64,000 nt of DNA from NCBI GenBank assembly GCA_001783805.1, contig MFNS01000001.1, positions 192,649 through 256,648 of the forward strand, given 5' to 3'. The position numbers and the translations under genes were made by a program. Source of the stretch: Candidatus Levybacteria bacterium RIFCSPHIGHO2_01_FULL_40_16. GTDB taxonomy: Bacteria > Patescibacteriota > Microgenomatia > Levybacterales > UBA12049. Numbering within the stretch: position 1 is the stretch's first letter; each line of letters starts with the position of its first letter. Under the pieces are notes generated by a model. That model was not told the origin of the DNA, made no database searches, and worked only from the letters and a program-made list of their open reading frames with translations. Positions 3,404 through 61,288 of this stretch are shown piece after piece.

Positions 3404-5419
3404 TTAAGATAATTTTAAAGATTTGATTTGGTCGCGGAGAAATGCGGCTTTTTCGAAATTCAAAGTCTGGGCGGCAATTTTCATTTCTTTTCGTAACTTT
3501 TTAATCAAATCTTCCCTTTCGTCAGGAAGCAAAACTTCTTTTTTGGCAAGGTCAAGATAAAAATTCAAACTGCCTTTGTAATTTTTACTTTCCGTAATTT
3601 CTTCGTCAATTAATTTTTCTCTAATTTGTTTTTGTATTCCGATTGGTTTTTTGTGATATTTTTTGTTGTATTTCAGCTGGATATTCCTGCGTCTTTCAAC
3701 CTCATTAATTGCATTTTTCATCGAACCTGTGACATTGTCAGCATACATAATTACCTCCGCATCAACATGTCTGGCCGCTCTTCCCATAGTTTGAATAAGC
3801 GATGTTCTACTGCGCAGAAATCCTTCTTTGTCCGCATCCAAAATCGCAACCAAAGAAACTTCGGGTAGATCCAATCCTTCACGCAGCAAATTAATTCCAA
3901 CCAGGACATCGTATTCGCCTTTTCTCAATCTATCCAAAATATCTTGTCTCTCTAGCGTTTGAATGTCGGAGTGCAGATACGCGACTTTAACATTTTGTTC
4001 TTCCAAATAACTGGAAAGCTCTTCCGCCATTCGTTTGGTTAAGGTAGTTACCAAAATTCTTTGTTTTTTGGCAACTCTTTTATTAATTTCATCAATCAGA
4101 TCTATAATTTGTCCTTTGGTTGGTTTGATAATTACTTTCGGATCAACCAAATTGGTTGGGCGAATCAATTGTTCGACAACCGCTCCGTCAGCTGACGGAT
4201 TGTCTTTGGCTAAAGATAACTCGTACTCGTCAGGAGTGGCGCTGACATAAGTAATTTGGTTAACTCTTTGCATAAATTCAGTAAATTTGAGCGGACGGTT
4301 GTCCAATGCGGAGGGAAGACGGAAACCATAATCAATTAAAGTGTTCTTTCTTGATTGATCTCCGTTGTACATTCCTCTTATTTGTGGAATTGTAATATGT
4401 GATTCATCAATAATTGTCAGGAAGTTTTTTGATGCATGCTTAAAATAGTCTAGTAAGGTATAGGGCGGCTGGCCGGGCGCTCTACCGTCAAAATAACGCG
4501 AATAATTTTCAATTCCATTGACGTAGCCTACTTCTTTGATCATTTCCAAATCAAAATTCGTCCGTTGTTCCAGCCTGTGGGCTTCCAAATTTTTACCAAC
4601 GCTTTTTAAAAATTTAACTTGTGTTTCCATGTCTTTTCTGATTATCGGAAACACATTATTGTAAGTATGCGGATCAGTCATATAATGTTTGGCAGGATAA
4701 ATCACCGTACCCTTCAAAATTGCAATTGTGTCGCCGGTTAAAGAATTAAACTCAGAAAGTTTATAGAGCTTATTCTTTTTAAGCTCAATTCTAATTCCTG
4801 TGTCTTTATAAGCCGGAAAAAGATCAATTGATTCGCCTCTAACCCGAAAACCGCCTCTGGCGAAAGCATATTCATTGCGTTCGTATTGCAGGTCGGTCAG
4901 ACGGATCATGATAGATTTTAAATCAGTCTTCATTCCGGGGACTAGCTCCATGACAAATTTTCCGTATTCAACCGGGGAGCCTAAATTGTAAATACAGGAG
5001 ACCGAAGCAACAACAATTACATCTTTTCTAGTTAATAAATTGGTTGTTGCGGAAAGCCGTAATTTATCAATTTCCTCATTAATTTCCGCCTCTTTTTCGA
5101 TGTAGGTGTCGCTTTGCGGGATATAAGCTTCGGGCTGGTAATAATCGTAGTAGGAGACAAAATAGGAAACGGCATTTTGCGGGAAAAAATCCCTGAATTC
5201 CTGATAAAGTTGTGCGGCCAGAGTTTTATTATGCGAAATTACCAGTGTTGGTTTTTGAACTTTTTGAATTACATTAGCCATGGTGAAAGTTTTACCAGAT
5301 CCGGTCACGCCTAGCAGAACCTGATTCCGGACATTGTTTTCAATGTTTTTCACCAGTTTTTCGATTGCCTGCGGCTGATCTCCGGTCGGTTTAAAATCCG
5401 ACTTCAGCTTAAATTTCAT
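3404..5419 (-). CDS. uvrB: excinuclease ABC subunit B
   Basis: GDQPQAI...GVTGSGKT Walker A, YYDYYQPEAYIP, and the DGRAPGQPP motif. Confidence 0.9.
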   Translation of the reverse strand: MKFKLKSDFKPTGDQPQAIEKLVKNIENNVRNQVLLGVTGSGKTFTMANVIQKVQKPTLVISHNKTLAAQLYQEFRDFFPQNAVSYFVSYYDYYQPEAYIPQSDTYIEKEAEINEEIDKLRLSATTNLLTRKDVIVVASVSCIYNLGSPVEYGKFVMELVPGMKTDLKSIMIRLTDLQYERNEYAFARGGFRVRGESIDLFPAYKDTGIRIELKKNKLYKLSEFNSLTGDTIAILKGTVIYPAKHYMTDPHTYNNVFPIIRKDMETQVKFLKSVGKNLEAHRLEQRTNFDLEMIKEVGYVNGIENYSRYFDGRAPGQPPYTLLDYFKHASKNFLTIIDESHITIPQIRGMYNGDQSRKNTLIDYGFRLPSALDNRPLKFTEFMQRVNQITYVSATPDEYELSLAKDNPSADGAVVEQLIRPTNLVDPKVIIKPTKGQIIDLIDEINKRVAKKQRILVTTLTKRMAEELSSYLEEQNVKVAYLHSDIQTLERQDILDRLRKGEYDVLVGINLLREGLDLPEVSLVAILDADKEGFLRSRTSLIQTMGRAARHVDAEVIMYADNVTGSMKNAINEVERRRNIQLKYNKKYHKKPIGIQKQIREKLIDEEITESKNYKGSLNFYLDLAKKEVLLPDEREDLIKKLRKEMKIAAQTLNFEKAAFLRDQIKSLKLS

Positions 5420-5451
5420 AGTGATCTATTTTACCATACGTTTGTATACCT

Positions 5452-8097: not shown

Positions 8098-9351
8098 TTA
8101 TAAAATTTTTAACTGATTTTCTATTTGCAAAAGTCTATTGTATTTCGCAATATTCTCACCCCTGGCTAAACTGCCTATTTTAATGTAATCTGCCGAAACC
8201 GAAACTGAAAAATCAGACAAAAAATCATCATTCGTCTCACTCTCTCTATGGGAAACAGTTACTTTTAAGCCTGTTTCTTTAGCTGCTTCCGCGACCGCCA
8301 AAGACTCGATGACCGTACCTATCTGGCTTGGTTTCACCACAATGGCGTTGACGGCTTTTTTGTCAATAGCCATTTGCAGCCTATATGGGTTGGTTGCGAT
8401 AAGGTCGCCCCCGGCAACTATAGTTGTGCCGGACAATTTTTCAAAAAGTGATGTCCATCCCTCCCAATCATCCTGATACAAAGGATCCTCTAAATATAAA
8501 AGATGAATATTCCGATTTAGTTCTTCGTAATAACTTATGAGATCTTTTGAGGATAGAGCCGTAGCACTATCTTTAAGATGATAATTTCCATTCTTGAAAA
8601 AGCTTGAAGCCCGGCTATTTAATCCAAAGAAAACATCAAAGCCAAGCTTGACATAGGTATTTCCGATTGCCTGCTCAATTAAAGAAAATGCTTCTTTATT
8701 TGTTGTCAGATCGGGAGTGAATCCTTCTTCGTATTCATCCAGCATCCTGGCATATTTTGTTTCAATAACCTGTTTGAGCGATTTCCGGACTGCTTCTCCG
8801 ATTTGGATAGATTCCAAATAAGATTTTGACGAGGCAGGAACAATCAGAAATTCATGAAAATCCGCTGAATGGCCTCTTGCTCCATCAATAAGATTAAAAA
8901 TTGGGGTAGGAATCTTAAGCGCTTCGCGATCTTTTTTTATAAATTGCCTAAGATACAGAAAAAGAGGAAGTACGGAGCTTTCTGCACCGGCTTTTGCAAC
9001 CGCCATCGACACTGCCAAAGTAGCATTCGTTCCAAGGCGTGATTTGTTTTGCGTACCGTCAAGATCAATCATAATCTTGTCTATTTCCGGCTGACGTTCC
9101 GCCTCTTTTCCTATTAGGGCAGGGGCAATAACATTTTTAATATTGCTTATTGCTTTGCTTACTCCCTGGCCTTCAAAAGTATTTTGGTCATTATCTTTTA
9201 AGGCAACTGCTTCATAGTTACTTATTTTTTCTCCAGTCGGACATGAAGCTACTCCAATTTTTCCATCATTGAGTATAATTGTTGCCTCAATTGTCGGAAG
9301 TCCTTTGGCATTAAGGATTTCCCGTGCATCAACTGCTTTTATTTTTGTCAT
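8098..9351 (-). CDS. eno: enolase
   Basis: N-terminal ARE(I)LNAKGLPTIEA; full-length enolase architecture. Confidence 0.85.
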   Translation of the reverse strand: MTKIKAVDAREILNAKGLPTIEATIILNDGKIGVASCPTGEKISNYEAVALKDNDQNTFEGQGVSKAISNIKNVIAPALIGKEAERQPEIDKIMIDLDGTQNKSRLGTNATLAVSMAVAKAGAESSVLPLFLYLRQFIKKDREALKIPTPIFNLIDGARGHSADFHEFLIVPASSKSYLESIQIGEAVRKSLKQVIETKYARMLDEYEEGFTPDLTTNKEAFSLIEQAIGNTYVKLGFDVFFGLNSRASSFFKNGNYHLKDSATALSSKDLISYYEELNRNIHLLYLEDPLYQDDWEGWTSLFEKLSGTTIVAGGDLIATNPYRLQMAIDKKAVNAIVVKPSQIGTVIESLAVAEAAKETGLKVTVSHRESETNDDFLSDFSVSVSADYIKIGSLARGENIAKYNRLLQIENQLKIL

Positions 9352-9364
9352 ACTTCAGCTATTA

Positions 9365-10465
9365 TTAATATATTAGTCCACCGGAATATATTTCTCCACT
9401 CACTCCATTAACAGTAACAATATTGCCGTTTTGAAACACCCGGGTCGCATTTTTGACTCCCTCTACTGTGGGAATATGAAAATCTTTTCTGTAAAGAAAT
9501 TTTTCATAGGAGTTTGGCAAGAATGAATCAACAACTACAGCTTTCGCATTTTTCATCATACCAAACAATGAGTGATCGAGATTATGAAGTACAATTACAT
9601 CGCCATTTTTTATTTTCGGGTCATAATTGAAATTATTTAAAATTTTAACACGTCCCGTAACTATTCCCGGATTAATTGAGACTCCTTTAGCGATGATTTT
9701 GGGGGTTTTATAAGACGTGGCTTTATTGTCAAATTTGTTTACTATTCCTGTAAAAGGATTGACTTTTGTGATGATAATTTTGTCTTTTATTACAATATAT
9801 TCAATTTCTTTTGGGAAATAAGAGTGTTTTTGGATTATTTTGCAGTAATCGTTTAATTTATCCATTTGCACCTTAGTTAATCTCTTATCGAAGACAGGAT
9901 TGCCTGTTACAATCTTTCCTTTTACTCCGGCTTTAATTTCTTCTTGTACTACAATTGCAACAGGGTTTTTGAAAGATGAAGCCCAAATCGTTTTTATTTT
10001 TAGAATTAAATTCGTATCGCCTTTTATATTTGTAAAAACAATAGATTTATTGTCGGAAGATGATGAAAAAATATTTAAGGGGCGGTTCTTAAATAATCCC
10101 GATAGATTTTTATAGTAATTATGTAATTCCGAAACCAATATTTGCGGAATATGGCTATGCATTATATGTCTTTGAAGCAAATTATCGGTTGAATTAGATA
10201 GCGCAGGGTGTTTTAGGAACGGAGTTTTATATATATTTTTATCAATATCGATTAGCCGTAAGAATTCTTTAAAGAAATTGATCGTAATTACAAATCCTTT
10301 CGGAAGCGGAATTCCTAATTTCCAGAGCATTCCGAGTTCTTGTGCTTTTTTGCCGACCAGATCTTCATCCGTTTTAAAAACTTGCGATAAATCTACGATG
10401 TGATGATTTAACCTCATACTATTTATTATGCGGAATTTCCCAAAATTATCAAGGGGAGTTAGCAA
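9365..10465 (-). CDS. PEP-utilising enzyme fragment: PPDK_N-like ATP-binding domain plus PEP-utiliser mobile domain, no PEP/pyruvate-binding TIM-barrel domain
   Basis: VGKKAQELG...GIPLPKGFVIT (PPDK_N); the C-terminal ...KDFHIPTVEG resembles the phosphohistidine domain, with the usual TSH possibly replaced (PNSY). Confidence 0.55.
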   Translation of the reverse strand: MLTPLDNFGKFRIINSMRLNHHIVDLSQVFKTDEDLVGKKAQELGMLWKLGIPLPKGFVITINFFKEFLRLIDIDKNIYKTPFLKHPALSNSTDNLLQRHIMHSHIPQILVSELHNYYKNLSGLFKNRPLNIFSSSSDNKSIVFTNIKGDTNLILKIKTIWASSFKNPVAIVVQEEIKAGVKGKIVTGNPVFDKRLTKVQMDKLNDYCKIIQKHSYFPKEIEYIVIKDKIIITKVNPFTGIVNKFDNKATSYKTPKIIAKGVSINPGIVTGRVKILNNFNYDPKIKNGDVIVLHNLDHSLFGMMKNAKAVVVDSFLPNSYEKFLYRKDFHIPTVEGVKNATRVFQNGNIVTVNGVSGEIYSGGLIY

Positions 10466-18453: not shown

Positions 18454-18527
18454 TACCTCCGACCGGATTCGAACCGGTGATTCTCTGGCTGAAAACCAGA
18501 TGTCCTAGGCCGCTAGACGACGGAGGC
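18454..18527 (-). tRNA. tRNA-Glu (anticodon TTC)
   Basis: GCCTCCG acceptor, D-arm TCGTCTAGCGGCCTAGGACA, loop TTTTCAG, T-loop TTCGAAT; no encoded CCA. Confidence 0.8.
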
Positions 18528-18770
18528 TTGATGTTTAATTAAATTTTCAATTGCAACCCTGCTTTTAAGCGATTTTAAATAAAATTCTCTTTTTCGAGCT
18601 TCTGATAACGTTTCATATTCTTCTTTGTAAATAAGTTTAAACGGTCCCCGATTTTTTGTATACTTTGAACGTCCTTTATTGTGATCTGTAAGCCGGCGAT
18701 TAATGTCAGTCGTACTGCCAATGTAATGTCTACCGTCAATATCACTTCTTAATATATAAGTCGTAAACAT
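18513..18770 (-). CDS. small GIY-YIG nuclease-family protein (start trimmed to MFTTYILRS); 3' end overlaps tRNA-Glu by about 15 nt
   Basis: YILRS...RHYIGSTTDINRRLTDHN...YTKNRGPFKLIY...REFYLKS: GIY-YIG core. Confidence 0.6.
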   Translation of the reverse strand: MFTTYILRSDIDGRHYIGSTTDINRRLTDHNKGRSKYTKNRGPFKLIYKEEYETLSEARKREFYLKSLKSRVAIENLIKHQASVV

Positions 18771-18969
18771 TTTGGTCCTAGGTTCCGATTTAATCGCGAA
18801 TGCTCGATGGATAAATCCATCGGCACCGCTAGCCCCGATGATCGGTGTCATCGGGATCCCGCACGAATGAAATTCGTCGGGAACGATGGCGGCAAGCATT
18901 ATTGATTATACCAACTTTCCTAAAAAAACCCAAGACTCACTTAAGAGCCTCGGGAGAATAAACTTTAAT

Positions 18970-19632: not shown

Positions 19633-19809
19633 GTTTTATTTCACCTCCTTTTTACCCGCCGCTCAAGTGCCCTTTGCGACGTGTTCGAATAGAACTGAAA
19701 AGTCGCAAAGTAAACTTAGGCGGGCCTTTGATCTTATATTATGCAGTTTAACTTCCCTTGTCAAGAGATTAGAGTATTGTTATAATTAGACATTGCACAG
19801 CATCCTTAA

Positions 19810-19824
19810 TTCTGCTTTGCAGAA
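19810..19824 (+). repeat. 15-nt hairpin TTCTGC-TTT-GCAGAA directly abutting the tRNA-Lys(TTT) 5' end
   Basis: The same stem recurs at 45589-45603, 47199-47213 and 61195-61209; variants at 45900-45914 and 47479-47493. Confidence 0.6.
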
Positions 19825-19896
19825 GGGTCGGTAGCTCAGTGGTAGAGCAGGAGCCTTTTAAGCTCTTGGTCCTGGGTTCGAATCCCAGCCGGCTCA
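19825..19896 (+). tRNA. tRNA-Lys (anticodon TTT)
   Basis: GGGTCGG acceptor, TAGCTCAGTGGTAGAGC D-arm, loop CTTTTAA, TTCGAAT T-loop. Confidence 0.85.
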
Positions 19897-39851: not shown

Positions 39852-41129
39852 CTAAATAGATTCAGCAGCCAATTTGGTGCGTTCGTATTTGTCTGCCATG
39901 TAGCCGTTGGGAACCGTGGTAAGTTTGTCTGAATATAATAAAAATCCATTGCGGATGGTATGATCGCCAAAACGCTCATTAATAAAATCTACTGTTTGTT
40001 GCAAAGAATTCTGCTTTGCAGAAGAATCAAATAAAGATAGGGGAGTATTGCTTGAGTCCTCTAAACCTGATGCCGTAATTCCAATTTGCCTGACATATTT
40101 AAAATTATTGACATTAACTAAATTGGTTAATAAATCAAACATTTCTTTACCTGTATCAAAATATTTCGTATAAGTTTTTCTTTGATGTAAATTTATGTTT
40201 CCGCCAAAATAATATCCGACAGTCCTGGCTTTTTTATTTAAGCGCCTTAATTTGATGCAAACTTCTTCGCACAATTCATAAATGTTTTGCAGAACAACTT
40301 TTTTATTATATTCGTTTTGGGGCAAACAATAATTCCGTCCCACCGATTTCACTTCCGGAGTCTTAGTGTAGGAACTTAGAACATCTGTGCTTAAGCCTAA
40401 GCCTACTTGATGTAAAAACTCTGCCTCTGCAGAGCCAAATTCCTGAATTAATAATGATAAATTCGCATCCCGTAATTGCAATAGATTGTAAATGCCGATC
40501 TTATTAAGTCTTAATTTTATTCTTTCTCCGATTCCGCAGACATCGGTTAATTTTGCTTTTGCATAAACTGCTCCTAAATTATCCTTGGTAATTTCGAACA
40601 CCCCGTCCGGTTTGTTAATGCTCGATGCCAATTTTGCCAAAAGTTTATTGTGCGAAATGCCAACCGAAACCGTAATATGTTCGCCGATTTTTTCTCTGAT
40701 TTCTTTTTTAAGAAGTTTTATCGTGCTATAAACTCCGCCGAATAAATGATTCGTCAAAGTAATATCCATAAAAACTTCGTCAATTGAGAAAAGTTCGACT
40801 TCCGGAGAAAAGCTTTGACAAATCTTCAAAAACTTCTTTGACACTTCCAGATATTTAACAAAATTAGCCGGAGCAAGATTCAGTGTGGGACAAATTTTCA
40901 GAGCTTCATAAGTTCGGGCTCCTGTTTTAATTCCTAATCTTTTCGCTTCGCGGCTGGAGGCAATAATACAAGTCCTGCCGTTGGTTGCGGTCACTCCGAG
41001 AGGCTTATTGCGCAAAAGGGGATTAAACTGCTGTTCGCAGCTGGCAAAAAAACTGTCAAAATCAATATGTAAAACCCGCCTGCCATCGGCTTTTGCCGAA
41101 GGTAAATGCGGGCAGGTTATTTTTTGCAT
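39852..41129 (-). CDS. dinB: DNA polymerase IV (Y-family)
   Basis: VLHIDFDSFFASCEQ catalytic motif; full UmuC/DinB architecture. Confidence 0.85.
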   Translation of the reverse strand: MQKITCPHLPSAKADGRRVLHIDFDSFFASCEQQFNPLLRNKPLGVTATNGRTCIIASSREAKRLGIKTGARTYEALKICPTLNLAPANFVKYLEVSKKFLKICQSFSPEVELFSIDEVFMDITLTNHLFGGVYSTIKLLKKEIREKIGEHITVSVGISHNKLLAKLASSINKPDGVFEITKDNLGAVYAKAKLTDVCGIGERIKLRLNKIGIYNLLQLRDANLSLLIQEFGSAEAEFLHQVGLGLSTDVLSSYTKTPEVKSVGRNYCLPQNEYNKKVVLQNIYELCEEVCIKLRRLNKKARTVGYYFGGNINLHQRKTYTKYFDTGKEMFDLLTNLVNVNNFKYVRQIGITASGLEDSSNTPLSLFDSSAKQNSLQQTVDFINERFGDHTIRNGFLLYSDKLTTVPNGYMADKYERTKLAAESI

Positions 41130-42039: not shown

Positions 42040-43941
42040 ATGAACAATTTAACATCGGATAAAATTAGAAATATCGCGGTTATTGCGCACGTTGACCACG
42101 GAAAAACTACGCTTGTAGATTTCATGCTCAAGCAGTCCCATACCTTCCGCGAAAATGAAGCGGAAATGACTCAAACTACTATTCTTGATTCAAATCCCCT
42201 GGAAAGAGAGCGGGGCATTACTATTTTGGCCAAAAATACCGCAATAAATTACAAACCTGCCCGCAATGCTTCGCCCGCCGGCATGCCTTCGGCAAAGCCG
42301 ATGGCGGCCAGGCAACACGATGCAGGCGGGGACTACAAAATTAATATTATAGATACTCCGGGGCACGCGGATTTTTCAGGGGAGGTTGAAAGGACTCTCA
42401 ATATGGCAGACGGAGCGCTTTTGATTATTGATGCGTTGGAAGGACCGATGCCGCAAACTAAATTTGTGCTTAAAAAAGCCCTTGGAATAGGTTTAAAAGT
42501 GATTGTTATCATCAATAAAATTGATAAAAAACTCGCAGATATTGCAGATTCTTTTGAAAAAACCAATGATTTATTTCTGGAATTGGCAACCGATTCGGAA
42601 CAATTGAACTTTCCCGTTCTCTATGCCGTAGGCCGCGAAGGAAAAGCAGCGGTAAAACTGGAAGATGTACAGGGAAGCAAAGATTTAGACCCAATTATGC
42701 AAACAATTATCAATTATATTCCGGCTCCAAAAGTTGACGCCGGCCCGTTTAGAATGCTGGCGACTGCTTTAGATTACGATACCCACAAAGGCAAACACGT
42801 CATCGGCAGAATCAGAAGCGGTACTCTGGAAAAAGGACAAACAGTGGTTTTAATTAATGCTAAAAATGAAAAAATTCCTGCCAAAATAGAAAATATTTAT
42901 ATAAACCGCGGTCTTAAAAAAGACGAGGTTGAAAAAGTGAGGGCCGGGGAAATAGTTGACATTACCGGAGTTGACAATGTGACTATCGGAGATACGATCG
43001 CAGATTCCAGCAATCCGGTTGCGCTTCCGCGAATTTCAATTGAAGATCCTACAATCAAAATTGCTATTTTTGCCAACACCAGCCCTTTTGCAGGCAAAGA
43101 GGGGAAATATTCAAATTCCCGCCAAGTCTATGAAAGGTTAGTTAAGGAATTGGAAACGAATATCAGTATGAAGTTAGAGGTTATGGAAGATAAATTTGTA
43201 GTTTCCGGAAGAGGGGAATTGCATTTGTCGGTTTTAATTGAAACCATGAGGCGCGAGGGTTATGAGTTCCAAGTTGAAAAACCGGAAGTAATTACAAAAA
43301 TTATCAACGGCGTAGAGATGGAGCCGGTTGAAGATTTAATTATTGATGTTCCGGACGAATTTCAAGGAATAATTTCAAGAGAGTTAGGAGAAAGAAGGGG
43401 ACAAATGACCAATATGGATGCTGACGGAAAAGGTAACACGCGTTTTGAATACAAAATTCCTTCCAAAAATCTTCTGGGACTGCGGAATACTTTATTAACC
43501 AACACTAAGGGTACAGCGGTAATCAATACTATGTTTGATAAATACGAGCCGTTGACGCCTGTACTTCCTAAAATCAGAAACGGTGTCTTGATTGCATCGG
43601 AACCGGGAACTGCCTTAACTTTTGGCCTGCAAAACGCGCAAGGAAGAGGCATAACTTTTATTGACCCCGGAACATCGGTTTATGAGGGAATGATTGTCGG
43701 TCTAAATACGAGAAGCGATGATATTGAAATAAATGTTGCTAAAGGAAAACACTTAACCAATATGCGGTCCGCAAATGCGGACATTGCAATTGCTTTAACT
43801 CCGCCCCTCAAAATGAGTTTAGAACAATATTTGGATTTTTTGGAAGACGACGAGCTTTTGGAGGTAACACCGAAAAGTTTAAGGCTGCGTAAAAAACTTT
43901 TGACCCGTCTTGACCGTGTTAGGGCTGCAAGAGTACAATAA
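42040..43941 (+). CDS. typA: translational GTPase TypA/BipA carrying a 25-aa in-frame insertion (PARNASPAGMPSAKPMAARQHDAGG) in the G domain
   Basis: AIIAHVDHGKTTL, DTPGHADF and NKID motifs; the insertion is encoded by a 76-nt GC-rich element at 42256-42331. Confidence 0.85.
   Translation: MNNLTSDKIRNIAVIAHVDHGKTTLVDFMLKQSHTFRENEAEMTQTTILDSNPLERERGITILAKNTAINYKPARNASPAGMPSAKPMAARQHDAGGDYKINIIDTPGHADFSGEVERTLNMADGALLIIDALEGPMPQTKFVLKKALGIGLKVIVIINKIDKKLADIADSFEKTNDLFLELATDSEQLNFPVLYAVGREGKAAVKLEDVQGSKDLDPIMQTIINYIPAPKVDAGPFRMLATALDYDTHKGKHVIGRIRSGTLEKGQTVVLINAKNEKIPAKIENIYINRGLKKDEVEKVRAGEIVDITGVDNVTIGDTIADSSNPVALPRISIEDPTIKIAIFANTSPFAGKEGKYSNSRQVYERLVKELETNISMKLEVMEDKFVVSGRGELHLSVLIETMRREGYEFQVEKPEVITKIINGVEMEPVEDLIIDVPDEFQGIISRELGERRGQMTNMDADGKGNTRFEYKIPSKNLLGLRNTLLTNTKGTAVINTMFDKYEPLTPVLPKIRNGVLIASEPGTALTFGLQNAQGRGITFIDPGTSVYEGMIVGLNTRSDDIEINVAKGKHLTNMRSANADIAIALTPPLKMSLEQYLDFLEDDELLEVTPKSLRLRKKLLTRLDRVRAARVQ
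42256..42331 (+). repeat. GC-rich miniature repeat element (CCTGCCCGC...GCAGGCGGGG), in-frame inside typA
   Basis: About 68% GC in a roughly 37% GC context; the same termini occur at 47517-47560 and 60157-60199. Confidence 0.6.
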
Positions 43942-45510: not shown

Positions 45511-45587
45511 TGGGGTGGGCAACGGGACTCGAACCCGCAACCGTCAGGTCCACAACCTGATGCTCTAGCCATTGAGCTACGCCCACC
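45511..45587 (-). tRNA. tRNA-His (anticodon GTG) with G-1 and encoded CCA
   Basis: G-GTGGGCG...loop TTGTGGA...TTCGAGT...TGCCCAC-C-CCA. Confidence 0.85.
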
Positions 45588-45588
45588 A

Positions 45589-45603
45589 TTCTGCAGAGCA
45601 GAA
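45589..45603. repeat. 15-nt hairpin TTCTGC-AGA-GCAGAA between the GIY-YIG stop and the tRNA-His 5' end
   Basis: Identical to the hairpin at 47199-47213. Confidence 0.6.
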
Positions 45604-45605
45604 TT

Positions 45606-45869
45606 CTATTCTAGCTTATCATAGTTTTCGAAAATGATTTTTCTCAATCTATGTCCAAAACCAGACTTTAAAAATTGTTTTCTTTTATCTGCGCACAATC
45701 TGCAATAAAAGTTTTCGAAATAAACTAAACGCCATGGCCGATTTGTCTTCGTATATCTAGAAAGTCCATCATTATGTTCCTTCAATCTAGATTCAATATC
45801 TTTTATTGTTAATCCTATATATGTCTTGCTTTTGTTGTGTAAACTTTTCAAAAAGTAAACTTTATACAT
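45606..45869 (-). CDS. small GIY-YIG nuclease-family protein
   Basis: MYKVYFLKS...TYIGLTIKDIESRLKEHNDG...WRLVYFE: GIY-YIG core; close paralog of the 47227 gene. Confidence 0.65.
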   Translation of the reverse strand: MYKVYFLKSLHNKSKTYIGLTIKDIESRLKEHNDGLSRYTKTNRPWRLVYFENFYCRLCADKRKQFLKSGFGHRLRKIIFENYDKLE

Positions 45870-45899: not shown

Positions 45900-45914
45900 A
45901 TCTGCTTTGCAGAT
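45900..45914. repeat. hairpin variant ATCTGC-TTT-GCAGAT abutting the tRNA-Arg(TCT) 3' end
   Basis: Same stem family as TTCTGC-NNN-GCAGAA. Confidence 0.5.
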
Positions 45915-45915
45915 G

Positions 45916-45988
45916 TGCCCCCGGAGGGAATCGAACCCCCAACCTTGTCGTTAGAACCGACCTGCTCTATCCGTTGAGCTACGAGGGC
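45916..45988 (-). tRNA. tRNA-Arg (anticodon TCT)
   Basis: GCCCTCG acceptor, D-arm GCTCAACGGATAGAGC, loop GTTCTAA, T-loop TTCGATT; one G-A mismatch at the base of the anticodon stem. Confidence 0.7.
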
Positions 45989-46063
45989 AGTATGTGTATT
46001 TTACAGTATTTCTTCTCTCTTTGACAATACTATCATCCTTACGTATACTACAAATGTTGGTTT

Positions 46064-47114: not shown

Positions 47115-47197
47115 GCTGCGGTGGTGGAATGGTATACACGGAGGCCTTAAGAGCCTCTATCCGTAAGGGTGTGTGGGTTCGACTCCCTCCCGCAGCA
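47115..47197 (+). tRNA. tRNA-Leu (anticodon TAA), class II with long variable arm
   Basis: GCTGCGG acceptor, loop CTTAAGA, variable arm TATCCGTAAGGGTGTG, T-loop TTCGACT. Confidence 0.8.
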
Positions 47198-47198
47198 C

Positions 47199-47213
47199 TT
47201 CTGCAGAGCAGAA
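47199..47213. repeat. 15-nt hairpin TTCTGC-AGA-GCAGAA abutting the tRNA-Leu(TAA) 3' end
   Basis: Same sequence as 45589-45603. Confidence 0.6.
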
Positions 47214-47226
47214 TCTAAAGGCGTAA

Positions 47227-47502
47227 ATGTATAAAGTTTATTTATTGCATAGCCTAAAAGACACAGGGATGTCTTACGTTGGATTAACAATTAAGGAAAT
47301 AGACAAGAGAGTTGAAGAACATAATAAAGGACTATCACAATATACAAAAACATTTAAGCCGTGGAGATTAGTTTATTACGAACTTTTCTATTGCAGAACA
47401 TGTGCCGAAAAAAGAGAACAATTCTTGAAAAGTGGAGTAGGATATCAATTAAGAAAACATCTGCTTACATTTAAGAATTCTTCTTTGAAGAACGGGGGTT
47501 AG
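47227..47502 (+). CDS. small GIY-YIG nuclease-family protein; 3' end runs through a hairpin variant (TTCTTCTTTGAAGAA) into the split-tRNA locus
   Basis: MYKVYLLHS...YVGLTIKEIDKRVEEHNKG...WRLVYYE. Confidence 0.65.
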   Translation: MYKVYLLHSLKDTGMSYVGLTIKEIDKRVEEHNKGLSQYTKTFKPWRLVYYELFYCRTCAEKREQFLKSGVGYQLRKHLLTFKNSSLKNGG

Positions 47503-47721
47503 CTCAGTTGGCTAGACCTGCCCGCAATTGCCTGGAGCCGATAGCGACTGGCAGGCGGGGCGCGCGGTTTGGCCCGCCTGACTTGAAATGACGGGGTGTA
47601 GTTCATCGGTAGAACGCTCGGTTTGGGACCGAGAAGCAACAGGTCCAATTCCTGTCACCCCGACAAGTCATTTCGGGCAGGGACCGTGAGGTCGGAGGTT
47701 CAAATCCTCTACCCCCGACCA
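47493..47721 (+). ncRNA. split tRNA-like gene: 5' half (acceptor CGGGGGT plus D-arm, 47493-47518) and 3' half (47675-47721: variable region, canonical T-arm GGAGG-TTCAAAT-CCTCT, acceptor ACCCCCG-A-CCA) separated by about 155 nt that contain a GC-rich repeat and a complete tRNA-Pro
   Basis: The outer 5' and 3' acceptor strands are perfectly complementary (7 bp) and a 7-bp CCTGCCC/GGGCAGG helix closes the insert; the 3' half resembles the tRNA-Pro 3' end (…GGTCGGAGGTTCAAATCCTCT…ACCA). Confidence 0.4.
47592..47663 (+). tRNA. tRNA-Pro (anticodon TGG) nested in the split tRNA-like locus; atypical T-loop TCCAATT
   Basis: CGGGGTG/CACCCCG acceptor (C1-G72), loop TTTGGGA; flanked by inverted repeat GAAATGA / TCATTTC. 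Confidence 0.65.
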
Positions 47722-57729: not shown

Positions 57730-57987
57730 CTAGGCATGATCATTCCAGTCTTTTAATCTTTTCCGCAAATAACTTTTGCCCAAACGAGTTTTGAGATATT
57801 TTTCTCTACGATAAGCATCAATTTCGCTTAGGCTGGCTTCGTAGTATATTATATCAAATGGAGCATATGGGCTGGTAGACTTAACCATTTTCTCATTATG
57901 CTCTCTAAATCTTCCTCTTAAATCATTAGTACATCCTGTATACAGAAATTTTCTGGACGTACTTTTTAAAACATAAACGTAAAACAT
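57730..57987 (-). CDS. small GIY-YIG nuclease-family protein, 5 nt downstream of the tRNA-Val locus
   Basis: MFYVYVLKS...LYTGCTNDLRGRFREHN...FDIIYYE. Confidence 0.65.
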   Translation of the reverse strand: MFYVYVLKSTSRKFLYTGCTNDLRGRFREHNEKMVKSTSPYAPFDIIYYEASLSEIDAYRREKYLKTRLGKSYLRKRLKDWNDHA

Positions 57988-57991
57988 CTTG

Positions 57992-58172
57992 TGGACTCTA
58001 GAGGATTTGAACCTCTGACATCTTCGATGTAAACGAAGCGCCCGGCCTGACTGGACTTTGTGGACCCGAGAGGATTCGAACCTCTGACCTTCTCAGTGTA
58101 AATGAGACGCTCTACCAACTGAGCCACGGGTCCATTCAAAGTCGGGCAGGTCTACCGCTGAGCTAAGAGTCC
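57992..58172 (-). ncRNA. split tRNA-Val-like gene: 5' half (acceptor GGACTCT plus D-arm, 58146-58172) and 3' half (57992-58060: anticodon arm with TAC, T-arm AGAGG-TTCAAAT-CCTCT, acceptor AGAGTCC-A), with a complete tRNA-Val nested between
   Basis: The outer acceptor strands pair 7/7 (one G-U); the 5' half matches the Pro-locus 5' half over TAGCTCAG..GGTAGACCTGCCCG; the nested tRNA is flanked by GACTTTG / CAAAGTC. Confidence 0.4.
58061..58133 (-). tRNA. tRNA-Val (anticodon TAC), intact, nested in the split locus
   Basis: GGACCCG acceptor, TGGCTCAGTTGGTAGAGC D-arm, loop TTTACAC, T-loop TTCGAAT. Confidence 0.85.
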
Positions 58173-60139: not shown

Positions 60140-60373
60140 TGCCCAGGGGGAGATTCCCTGCCCGCCATCAGCTGTCGCCTCAGGCGACTGCAGGCGGGGA
60201 ACTCCCAAGCCCTTGCGGACACAGCGTTCTGAACACTGCATGCCCGCCTGCCAGAGTGCCCCAAGAGGGACTCGAACCCTCACGTCCTTGCGGACACAGC
60301 GTTCTGAACACTGCATGTCTACCATTCCATCATCGGGGCACGGCGGACAGGTCTACCATTTCATCACCTGGGC
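60140..60373 (-). ncRNA. composite tRNA-Leu(CAG) locus: outer 5' half (acceptor GCCCAGG plus D-arm-like GATGAAATGGTAGAC) and outer 3' part (duplicate anticodon and variable arms, GC-rich repeat 60157-60199, acceptor CCTGGGC-A) flanking the intact tRNA
   Basis: The outer acceptor strands pair 7/7; a 32-nt duplicate of the anticodon/variable arm (CCTTGCGGACACAGCGTTCTGAACACTGCATG) is present twice; the 5' half ends GACCTGTCCGCC, like the other split loci. Confidence 0.35.
60257..60339 (-). tRNA. tRNA-Leu (anticodon CAG), class II
   Basis: GCCCCGA/TTGGGGC acceptor, loop TTCAGAA, variable arm TGTCCGCAAGGACGT, T-arm GAGGG-TTCGAGT-CCCTC. Confidence 0.8.
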
Positions 60374-61151: not shown

Positions 61152-61196
61152 CCTAAGGTATGCCTTTCCAAATGCATACGTTAGGATTTTTTTATT
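61152..61196 (+). terminator. rho-independent terminator (12-bp stem CCTAAGGTATGC/GCATACGTTAGG, loop CTTTCCAAAT, T-rich tail)
   Basis: Stem-loop followed by ATTTTTTTATT, downstream of CDS 60441-61019. Confidence 0.6.
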
Positions 61197-61209
61197 CTGC
61201 AAAGCAGAA
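61195..61209. repeat. 15-nt hairpin TTCTGC-AAA-GCAGAA (not adjacent to a tRNA)
   Basis: Same stem as the tRNA-border hairpins. Confidence 0.5.
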
Positions 61210-61211
61210 TA

Positions 61212-61283
61212 ACCCGCCGACCAATCGCACCGTGAGCCGTCTACGAATAGTAGTGGAAAGGCAAACGGAAAGATTAGGCGGGT
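61212..61283 (+). promoter_or_regulatory. structured GC-rich 5' leader (ACCCGCC...GGCGGGT) immediately upstream of the start codon of paralog 2
   Basis: 72 nt; same terminal helix and length as 47932-48001; shares GTCTACG internally. Confidence 0.4.
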
Positions 61284-61288
61284 GCATT

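Follow-up and report, generated by a model that had tools for sequence, protein, structure and literature searches.

Two cassettes, each made up of a gene for a minimal GIY-YIG nuclease bounded by a pair of 15-nt stem-loops, occupy spacers between tRNA genes in a 64,000-nt stretch of the genome of Candidatus Levybacteria bacterium RIFCSPHIGHO2_01_FULL_40_16 (contig MFNS01000001.1; hereafter the window). The original prediction, made from the letters of the window, had described the stem-loops as a recurrent hairpin at the borders of tRNA genes. Our analysis shows that the hairpins are the terminal stem-loops of the cassette and are present or absent together with it as one unit, and that the layout of upstream tRNA, left hairpin (loop ARA), open reading frame (ORF), right hairpin (loop TYT), and downstream tRNA is conserved in many Microgenomates lineages. 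The cassette is about 300 bp long and takes up the entire interval between two tRNA genes that belong to one tRNA operon and point the same way. For the role of the hairpins we favor, with a probability of roughly 0.5, an explanation at the RNA level, in which the ORF would be transcribed within the tRNA operon and ribonuclease (RNase) Z and RNase P would free an mRNA with a stem-loop at each end, the stem-loops serving to insulate and to cap it.

An exact-pattern scan of the window found five copies of TTCTGC-N3-GCAGAA, at positions 19810, 40009, 45589, 47199, and 61195, against a mean of 0.00 in 100 dinucleotide-preserving shuffles, and the recurrence of the hairpin is thus real. The four exact sites originally listed are among these, but the copy at 40009 had been overlooked. 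A search permitting up to two mismatches added two compensatory variants that are still perfectly palindromic, ATCTGC-TTT-GCAGAT at 45900–45914 and TTCTTC-TTT-GAAGAA at 47478–47492, the latter of which had been reported correctly as a variant but one base too high, at 47479–47493. There are 17–18 tRNA genes in the window according to ARAGORN and Rfam, and five of the seven hairpins lie within 0–2 nt of a tRNA end, which is not attributable to chance because there are only about 40 tRNA ends per 64 kb. Position 19824 directly precedes base 1 of tRNA-Lys(ttt) at 19825, the hairpin at 45589 lies 1 nt from tRNA-His when measured to G-1 on the minus strand, and the hairpin at 47199 begins immediately behind tRNA-Leu(taa), for which ARAGORN places the end at 47198, and one base past the discriminator. 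The four sites said to lie beside GIY-YIG genes do so and flank two ORFs, at 45606–45869 on the minus strand and 47227–47502 on the plus strand. Other proteins encoded in the window include UvrA, UvrB, BipA, and DinB, and the region is also present in GCA_001782335.1 and in long metagenome contigs.

The two cassettes share the order upstream tRNA, left hairpin, GIY-YIG ORF, right hairpin, and downstream tRNA. Cassette 1 is read on the minus strand and begins behind tRNA-Arg(tct) (45915–45988; ARAGORN, Rfam), ahead of which a promoter scan identified a promoter-like TTGTCA-18-TAAAAT at 46027–45998. Its left (5′) hairpin, ATCTGC-AAA-GCAGAT (45900–45914), directly follows the 3′ end of tRNA-Arg at 45915 and is found identical and in the same place in L009, L026, L028, L029, L074, and L078 (L numbers denote related loci from other genomes and metagenomes). 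The start codon of GIY-YIG ORF 1 (45606–45869; 87 amino acids, a single domain matching Pfam PF01541 with an E-value of 2.8e-10) is 30 nt past this hairpin, and the protein is identical to P0024 from Levybacteria. The right (3′) hairpin, TTCTGC-TCT-GCAGAA (45589–45603), is predicted to fold beside the cloverleaf and is followed by a single T and then by the encoded G-1 of tRNA-His(gtg) (45511–45587; ARAGORN, Rfam). Cassette 2 is read on the plus strand and begins behind tRNA-Leu(taa) (47115–47198; ARAGORN), which has a conserved extended −10 box, TGnTAAAAT, about 25 nt upstream, as seen by eye in the window and in L074, L077, and L079. The left hairpin, TTCTGC-AGA-GCAGAA (47199–47213), starts one base past the tRNA-Leu discriminator and is predicted to form in its context. 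GIY-YIG ORF 2 (47227–47502; 91 amino acids, PF01541, E 6.9e-11) starts 13 nt past the left hairpin, and its final codons cross the right hairpin into the 5′ end of tRNA-Pro. This right hairpin, TTCTTC-TTT-GAAGAA (47478–47492), has identical copies in L010, L012, and L042 and is flush with base 1 of an outer tRNA-Pro(tgg) gene (47493–47718, plus strand) that is interrupted by two GC-rich insertions, one of which holds an intact tRNA-Pro (47592–47664), as judged by eye against the uninterrupted tRNA-Pro of L010.

To place the cassettes among their relatives, a protein alignment was searched against 185,579 species genomes and the JGI metagenomes, which yielded 15 and 50 loci, respectively. The alignment used was that of the 16 closer sequences; an alignment of 26 sequences had no conserved stretch. 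The anatomy described above holds in 12 of the 15 genome loci and in most of the 50 metagenome loci, some 60 related Microgenomates loci in all, and nearly all relatives at or above about 55% identity keep the arrangement. The tRNAs upstream of the cassettes are Leu-taa, Arg-cct, Arg-tcg, Arg-tct, and Leu-gag, and those downstream are Pro-tgg, Pro-cgg, His, and Val-tac, with one cassette upstream of Lys-ctt. The pairs occupied are Leu(taa)-Pro(tgg), Arg(cct)-Pro(cgg), Arg(tcg)-Pro(tgg), Arg(tct)-His, and Leu(gag)-Val(tac), in addition to the site before Lys(ctt), and the hairpins are flush with the tRNAs in each of them. Among the 36 non-redundant cassette configurations, the left loop is A-rich in 31 of 31 (AAA in 20, AGA in 8, ATA in 2, and AAG in 1), and the right loop is pyrimidine-rich in 35 of 35 (TCT in 17, TTT in 16, CTT in 1, and ATT in 1). 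In 20 of 31 the left hairpin is preceded by cac, bases that probably correspond to the final base of the acceptor stem, the discriminator, and one more base, and tRNA 5′ sequence directly follows the right hairpin in 34 of 35. Every cassette is co-oriented with both flanking tRNAs, and the start codon follows the upstream tRNA at a distance of 4–53 nt, with the left hairpin just 4–6 nt from the ATG in several loci (L027, L030–L035). The proposed tie of the hairpin to tRNA borders and GIY-YIG genes is therefore an association conserved across many genomes. Rfam contains no family for the 15-nt hairpin, and our literature searches turned up no account of hairpin-bounded GIY-YIG cassettes beside tRNA genes in bacteria of the candidate phyla radiation (CPR). 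The association, conserved but unstudied, defines a compact module of stem-loop, minimal GIY-YIG nuclease, and stem-loop in tRNA operons across Microgenomates.

The distribution of the hairpins follows the ORF and not the tRNA. The window and the related loci (each up to about 20 kb, with no more than 10 kb of flank per side), 545 kb in total, contain 108 hairpins of the family where about one is expected by chance, and 100 of the 108 are within 260 nt of a GIY-YIG ORF; most of the remaining eight are chance or coding matches. Among 75 non-redundant tRNAs away from a GIY-YIG ORF, only one has a hairpin of the family, the tRNA-Lys(ttt) of the window, and the signal thus does not mark tRNA borders as such. 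Spacers lacking the cassette were located in other Levybacteria via homologues of the neighboring AI-2E transporter. The Arg(tct)-His spacer carries the full hairpin-ORF-hairpin cassette in the window, L009, L026, L028, L029, L074, and L078, is empty (10–22 nt, no hairpin) in L073, L075, L076, L079, and L080, and holds a different 101-nt insert in L077. The Leu(taa)-Pro(tgg) spacer, occupied in the window, has no hairpin in L074 (about 2 nt), L075 (25 nt), or L079 (88 nt). L077, the closest relative by transporter identity (79%), has at this site (1847–2345) a different GIY-YIG ORF of 84 amino acids with a 155-nt upstream region and keeps just a degenerate right hairpin, ATTGCTTTGCAGAA|CGGGGG, which suggests that one nuclease gene was replaced by another at a fixed site. 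Because gain and loss of the hairpins go together with those of the ORF, the hairpins form the ends of the inserted unit and are neither a pre-existing target nor a feature of the tRNA, and the proposal that the hairpin is the insertion target fails on the hairpin-free spacers of these close relatives. The tRNA contexts of the cassettes are interleaved on a poorly resolved protein tree and this, together with the patchy occupancy among close relatives, indicates gain, loss, and relocation at the DNA level.

The stems are conserved as structures. All of the stem variants found, TTCTGC, ATCTGC, ACCTGC, TACTGC, CTCTGC, CACTGC, TCCTGC, TCCTCC, TTCTCC, TTCTTC, and GTCTGC, are paired, and in the hairpin alignment 97.5% of stem cells are paired, with changes on both sides in three of the six stem pairs (20 cells). 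None of 500 shuffles reached the observed paired percentage, both-side cell count, or covariation score, and all slid registers scored far lower, so the base pairs are kept by compensatory changes, as in an RNA (or single-strand) hairpin. The sequences were filtered on four fixed positions and at least five of six pairs, but the resulting selection bias is small because nearly every anchored locus has a hairpin. The left and right stems are identical in just 5 of 30 loci. As the stems covary and the two ends differ, it is the local fold that is conserved and not a shared binding sequence or a long-range pairing between left and right. A panhandle or RNase III site formed by left-right pairing was rejected because in 25 of 30 loci the two stems are not the same and because the loops show no covariation, and a palindromic operator for a dimeric DNA-binding protein was rejected because the variants are always compensatory within a hairpin and differ between the ends of a cassette.

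The hairpin-flanked ORFs encode proteins of 85–91 amino acids consisting of the catalytic domain only. In addition to the match to PF01541, the conserved Tyr, Tyr-x-Gly, Arg, His/Asn, and Glu positions place them in the GIY-YIG superfamily, with Y5, Y17, G19, R28, H32, N33, and E52 invariant among 16–26 homologues. The best PDB matches of a profile of 16 homologues are weak but consistent, namely SLX1 (4xlg, E 4.7e-4) and the UPF0213 protein EF2693 (1ywl, E 7.9e-4), and the UPF0213 protein BH0048 is a further solved relative matched by this profile; these weak profile matches indicate a sequence relationship to SLX1/UPF0213 (YhbQ-like) proteins. The NCBIfam model for group I intron endonucleases matches neither hairpin-flanked ORF, and with only the catalytic domain present the protein is not a classical two-domain homing endonuclease. 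When compared with the properties of homing endonucleases, the separate DNA-binding domain is lacking, whereas presence or absence at a fixed site among related genomes is observed. Truncated or duplicated pieces of tRNA-Pro beside cassettes are at most indirect hints that the enzyme may cut cassette-free alleles close to the site of insertion.

Two more small GIY-YIG genes of a different subfamily are located in the window, at 18513–18767 and 57748–58005, both on the minus strand, so that all four GIY-YIG genes of the window are tRNA-adjacent. These two share about 37–50% identity with the hairpin-flanked ORFs, match the group I intron endonuclease model weakly, and have no TTCTGC-type hairpins. 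One of them reads into the 5′ end of tRNA-Glu and the other starts 4 nt past an outer tRNA-Val. A leader of about 130 nt (18770–18900, minus strand), rich in short inverted repeats such as CCCGATGACACCGATCATCGGG, separates an extended −10 promoter (TGGTATAAT) from the start of the ORF at 18513–18767.

In the mechanism that we favor, the tRNA promoter would drive transcription of the ORF. A promoter would hardly fit into the 4–53 nt ahead of the ORF, which presumably relies on that of the tRNA, and the tRNAs are almost contiguous in the empty state and therefore presumably form one transcript. RNase Z, the enzyme that matures CCA-less bacterial tRNAs, would cut past the discriminator of the upstream tRNA, which lacks an encoded CCA, and the cut made by RNase P would fall at +1 of the downstream tRNA. 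Together the cuts would free two tRNAs and an mRNA that starts 1 nt ahead of one stem-loop and finishes precisely with the other. The hairpins would then act as self-contained insulators that keep the AT-rich insert from pairing with acceptor-stem strands, leaving tRNA maturation unharmed, and as end caps against 5′-end-dependent and 3′-exonucleolytic decay. Work in Escherichia coli and Bacillus subtilis has established that 5′-terminal stem-loops protect bacterial mRNAs only when within a few nucleotides of the 5′ end and that 3′ stem-loops block 3′ exonucleases. The tRNA-flanked expression arrays of synthetic biology share the design proposed here. In loci with just 4–6 nt from the left hairpin to the ATG, the hairpin probably also lowers nuclease translation. 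The hairpins are flush with the tRNAs in at least five tRNA-pair contexts, which argues that RNA landmarks matter, and ViennaRNA predicts that the hairpin forms beside the cloverleaf in three of four precursor contexts. The suggestion in the original prediction of a processing site comes close to this mechanism, in which the hairpins would directly adjoin the cuts predicted for RNase Z and RNase P.

Several points weigh against this mechanism. We infer the RNA-level role from position, and the flushness could partly reflect a very short original spacer, as in the empty Leu-Pro site of L074. As RNA the stems are of low stability, at −2.9 to −7.2 kcal/mol, and the non-Watson-Crick cells do not favor G-U over C-A (one G-U versus two C-A, too few imperfect hairpins to discriminate RNA from DNA). 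The A-rich left and pyrimidine-rich right loops make the two ends inverted copies of each other, as in terminal inverted repeats, a feature for which the RNA-level mechanism offers no reason. No ORF accompanies the orphan hairpins at 19810 and 61195 that they could serve, and the minimum free energy fold of the tRNA-Lys leader uses an alternative pairing. Distant cassettes (L020–L022, L059–L070) place their hairpins at DNA breakpoints in truncated tRNA-Pro genes and not at mature tRNA ends. If the RNA-level mechanism is correct, the cassette would be a natural case of a selfish or accessory gene exploiting tRNA processing and equipped with its own insulator and end-cap hairpins, and it would offer a handle on the rules of RNA decay in uncultured CPR bacteria.

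The main rival explanation is that the hairpins act as DNA, single-stranded or extruded, as the recognition or cleavage sites of the encoded SLX1-like nuclease, the whole being a hairpin-bounded mobile unit with ends analogous in function to those of REP/RAYT or IS200/IS605; the endonuclease recognition site suggested in the original prediction corresponds to this. We consider this rather unlikely. In its favor, close relatives either have or lack the cassette as a precise unit, and it occupies at least five tRNA pairs whose contexts are interleaved on the weak protein tree. The left and right loops are reverse complements, so that the same hairpin could form on opposite strands at the two ends, as with terminal inverted repeats. 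The closest solved relatives, SLX1 and UPF0213 proteins, are structure-specific rather than sequence-specific homing enzymes, and a length of 85–91 amino acids leaves no room for a separate DNA-binding domain. The hairpins of distant relatives lie exactly at breakpoints of truncated tRNA-Pro genes (L020, L021, L022; L059–L070), right hairpins occur in tandem in L038 and L039, the right hairpin is followed by 5′ pieces of tRNAs in L032, L037, and L049, and the window contains two orphan hairpins with the same stem sequence. On the other hand, a 6-bp stem is very weak as DNA, at −2.5 to −3.9 kcal/mol, and cruciform extrusion needs far more stability than this. A symmetric transposon would insert both ways, whereas the cassette has a single orientation relative to the tRNAs, and the mature tRNA ends, with which the hairpins are flush in every context, are landmarks of RNA and not of DNA. 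Unlike REP-type elements (REP, repetitive extragenic palindrome), the hairpins are hardly ever dispersed (8 of 108 away from an ORF, mostly chance or coding), and a GIY-YIG nuclease alone is incapable of strand transfer. The more specific proposal that hairpin-ORF-hairpin is a new class of autonomous mobile element in CPR inter-tRNA spacers, with the hairpins as DNA substrates in a GIY-YIG counterpart of REP/RAYT or IS200/IS605, is in our view unlikely; the same hairpin-nuclease machinery might also lie behind the nearby tRNA truncations, tRNA-in-tRNA replacements, and orphan hairpins. A DNA-level role would mean a new kind of hairpin-guided mobile element and would give a function to the widespread orphan family of about 90-residue GIY-YIG (UPF0213-like) proteins.

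Two further explanations concern transcription and the tRNA itself. The hairpins could be expression brakes only, with the left hairpin and a T-rich tail forming a weak attenuator and/or a translation block and the right hairpin a weak 3′ stop, and expression-limiting hairpins are indeed known for phage homing-endonuclease genes. The earlier statement that no T-tract follows the hairpin mostly holds, but the hairpin at 45900 has a T-rich tail (TTCTTTATGT) and is flagged as terminator-like in a permissive scan, TT or T-rich sequence follows most left hairpins, and the short distance to the ATG in L027 and L030–L035 would suit a brake on translation. A stable GC-rich stem followed by a U-tract, as in an intrinsic terminator, was not found, as the stems are just −3 to −7 kcal/mol, the U-tracts are usually absent or short, with tails that are mostly not T-runs, and only the 45900 copy passes the permissive scan. 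Moreover, a terminator before the downstream tRNA would starve the cell of an essential single-copy tRNA, and the right hairpin ending exactly at position −1 of the tRNA (34 of 35) is left unexplained, making a pure brake very unlikely. The idea that the hairpin is a general leader or trailer element of tRNAs, or an insertion target, with GIY-YIG genes merely inserting beside it, draws on the tRNA-Lys(ttt) of the window, which has a hairpin behind its own promoter-like site and no GIY-YIG gene, and on the bases before G-1 of tRNA-His, which resemble the 3′ arm of the hairpin at empty sites also (...GAAT|G or ...AGAT|G). This idea is essentially refuted by the single hairpin among 75 tRNAs away from a GIY-YIG ORF and by the orthologous empty spacers of L073, L074, L075, L076, L079, and L080, which have none.

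Three copies of the motif in the window lie outside the cassettes. The first, a right-type hairpin TTCTGC-TTT-GCAGAA (19810–19824, plus strand), is flush with tRNA-Lys(ttt) at 19825 and sits in a leader of about 30 nt behind a promoter-like TTGTCA-17-TATAAT (19758–19786). A cassette is found upstream of tRNA-Lys in L037, and the copy at 19810 may be a relic. The second, a left-type hairpin TTCTGC-AAA-GCAGAA (61195–61209, plus strand), is located in a 5′ untranslated region with no tRNA or GIY-YIG gene nearby, flanked on one side by a terminator-like stem with its T7 run and on the other by a conserved structured leader (61210–61286). Its position after a terminator had been noted originally and agrees with the 12-bp imperfect stem and T7 run that are seen by eye; the terminator scan did not flag this stem, which has a loop of 10 nt. 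No remnants of GIY-YIG pseudogenes were found beside either orphan hairpin with tblastn or blastn. The third copy (40009–40023) is a coding coincidence in dinB, which is on the minus strand, where the codons TCT GCA AAG CAG AAT encode SAKQN. A mobile 15-nt unit inserted in frame was considered here and rejected, because many DinB homologues share S-A-K-Q-N and there is no 5-residue insertion.

The structured leader at 61210–61286 (plus strand) also occurs in L019 (8541–8616) and has the form ACCCGCC...GAGCCGTcTACGAATAGTA...AAAGGCaAAa.GGAA...GGCGGGT. It precedes an ORF for a secreted-like protein in the window and bipA in L019, and its closing helix shows a compensatory change, ACCCGCC/GGCGGGT in the window versus ACCCTCC/GGGAGGGT. 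A search of Rfam gave no match at E-values up to 1, and the leader may be an undescribed cis-regulatory RNA.

Related loci display further arrangements of the hairpins. Between the GIY-YIG ORF and tRNA-Pro, the right hairpin is repeated in tandem in L038 (5303–5417, six copies with a 20-nt period), L039 (5300–5428, seven copies with a 19-nt period), and also L040. In L032 (829–885), L037 (312–409), and L049 (5282–5336), the right hairpin is followed by a 12–40-nt 5′ fragment of the downstream tRNA, then by extra sequence and an intact copy of the same tRNA, and these fragments are a sign of repeated DNA breakage and repair in these tRNA genes. Distant GIY-YIG cassettes have adjacent pairs of 15-nt hairpins with the same 6-3-6 geometry and loops AGA/AAA followed by TTT/TCT, for example TCGCCC-AGA-GGGCGA and then TCGACC-TTT-GGTCGA. 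Such pairs are located in L021 (4522–4551), L022 (4850–4879 and 5290–5319), L070 (486–515, 782–811, and 840–869), and L020 (4928–4977), at breakpoints of truncated or duplicated tRNA-Pro genes.

A second, GC-rich element with palindromic ends, CCTGCCCG...CAGGCGGG, shares the tRNA loci of the cassettes and may be the more unusual phenomenon of the window, inserting in frame into proteins as well as into RNA genes. Copies without cargo (38–43 or 75 nt) are found in the window at 42256–42330 (plus), 41075–41116 (minus), 47517–47559 (plus), and 60157–60198 (plus), in L072 at 5409–5446, and in L077 at 2271–2312, and call to mind the palindromic elements of Rickettsia. The 75-nt copy adds 25 residues in frame to the GTPase domain of BipA, at the point between positions 99 and 100 of the E. 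coli protein. A 42-nt copy spans codons 5–18 of the dinB ORF, upstream of the usual N terminus of DinB, and the other cargo-less copies sit in tRNA genes, in the D-arm and the T-loop. The copies of about 110 nt have a whole tRNA as cargo and lie, in every case seen, inside a tRNA gene of the same anticodon, where they are inserted in the D-arm (after TAGA) or the anticodon loop. In the window these nested tRNAs are at 47493–47718 (plus; Pro-tgg), 58181–57990 (minus; Val-tac), and 60375–60145 (minus; Leu-cag), and in relatives they are at 9308–9490 and 7740–7930 of L039 (Arg-tct and Gly-tcc), in L055 (Pro), and at 2247–2470 of L077 (Pro). The inner and outer tRNA sequences differ, the inner tRNA-Pro resembling the Amesbacteria type (L018) and the outer one the Levybacteria type (L010). 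Insertions of this element account for what had been called a split tRNA in the original prediction. Owing to the cassette and its neighbors, gene callers run ORFs into tRNAs and tRNA finders miss interrupted tRNA genes.

Of the known systems, the closest analogue is segB of phage T4, which encodes a GIY-YIG homing endonuclease and is located in a tRNA cluster (PMC2330249). Like segB, the nuclease gene of the cassette has tRNA genes on both sides and behaves in inheritance as a presence/absence unit, and the tRNA genes around it show signs of turnover at the DNA level. The cassette differs from the T4 seg genes in that its host is a CPR bacterium and not a phage and that its proteins are closest to SLX1 and UPF0213. 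SegB and I-TevI-type enzymes are about 200–250 residues long and include a DNA-binding domain, and we know of no flush terminal hairpins for seg genes. With REP/RAYT and IS200/IS605 systems the cassette shares the pairing of short palindromes with a small nuclease gene and the conservation of structure over sequence. Its enzyme is a GIY-YIG protein and not an HUH (Y1) transposase, however, its hairpins are linked to an ORF in 100 of 108 cases, and its ends are mutually inverted rather than on the same strand. Palindromic mini-elements accompany GIY-YIG ORFs in fungal mitochondria, as double-hairpin elements and GC clusters, and palindromic elements are also known in Rickettsia. The likeness here lies in small palindromes with endonuclease ORFs in AT-rich compact genomes and in the double 15-nt hairpins of L021, L022, and L070, whereas the hairpins of the family studied here (family A) are single, 15 nt long, fixed at the ORF ends, and flush with tRNAs rather than scattered. 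At the RNA level, tRNA punctuation is known from animal mitochondria and from bacterial tRNA-mRNA co-transcripts such as the tufB operon, and the cassette mRNA would likewise be freed by the cuts of RNase P and RNase Z that mature the tRNAs. In contrast to these cases, it would carry a dedicated, covarying stem-loop flush with each predicted cut, and its gene is an accessory, patchily distributed nuclease and not a core gene. Terminal stem-loops that stabilize bacterial mRNAs include the ompA 5′ hairpin and REP and other 3′ stem-loops, and the cassette hairpins resemble these in lying 0–1 nt from the predicted RNA ends. They differ in that their stems are just 6 bp and weak and in that the ends, in our proposal, would be made by tRNA-processing enzymes and not by the start or termination of transcription. 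The proposed RNA mechanism is thus a combination of two known ideas, tRNA punctuation and terminal stabilizer stem-loops.

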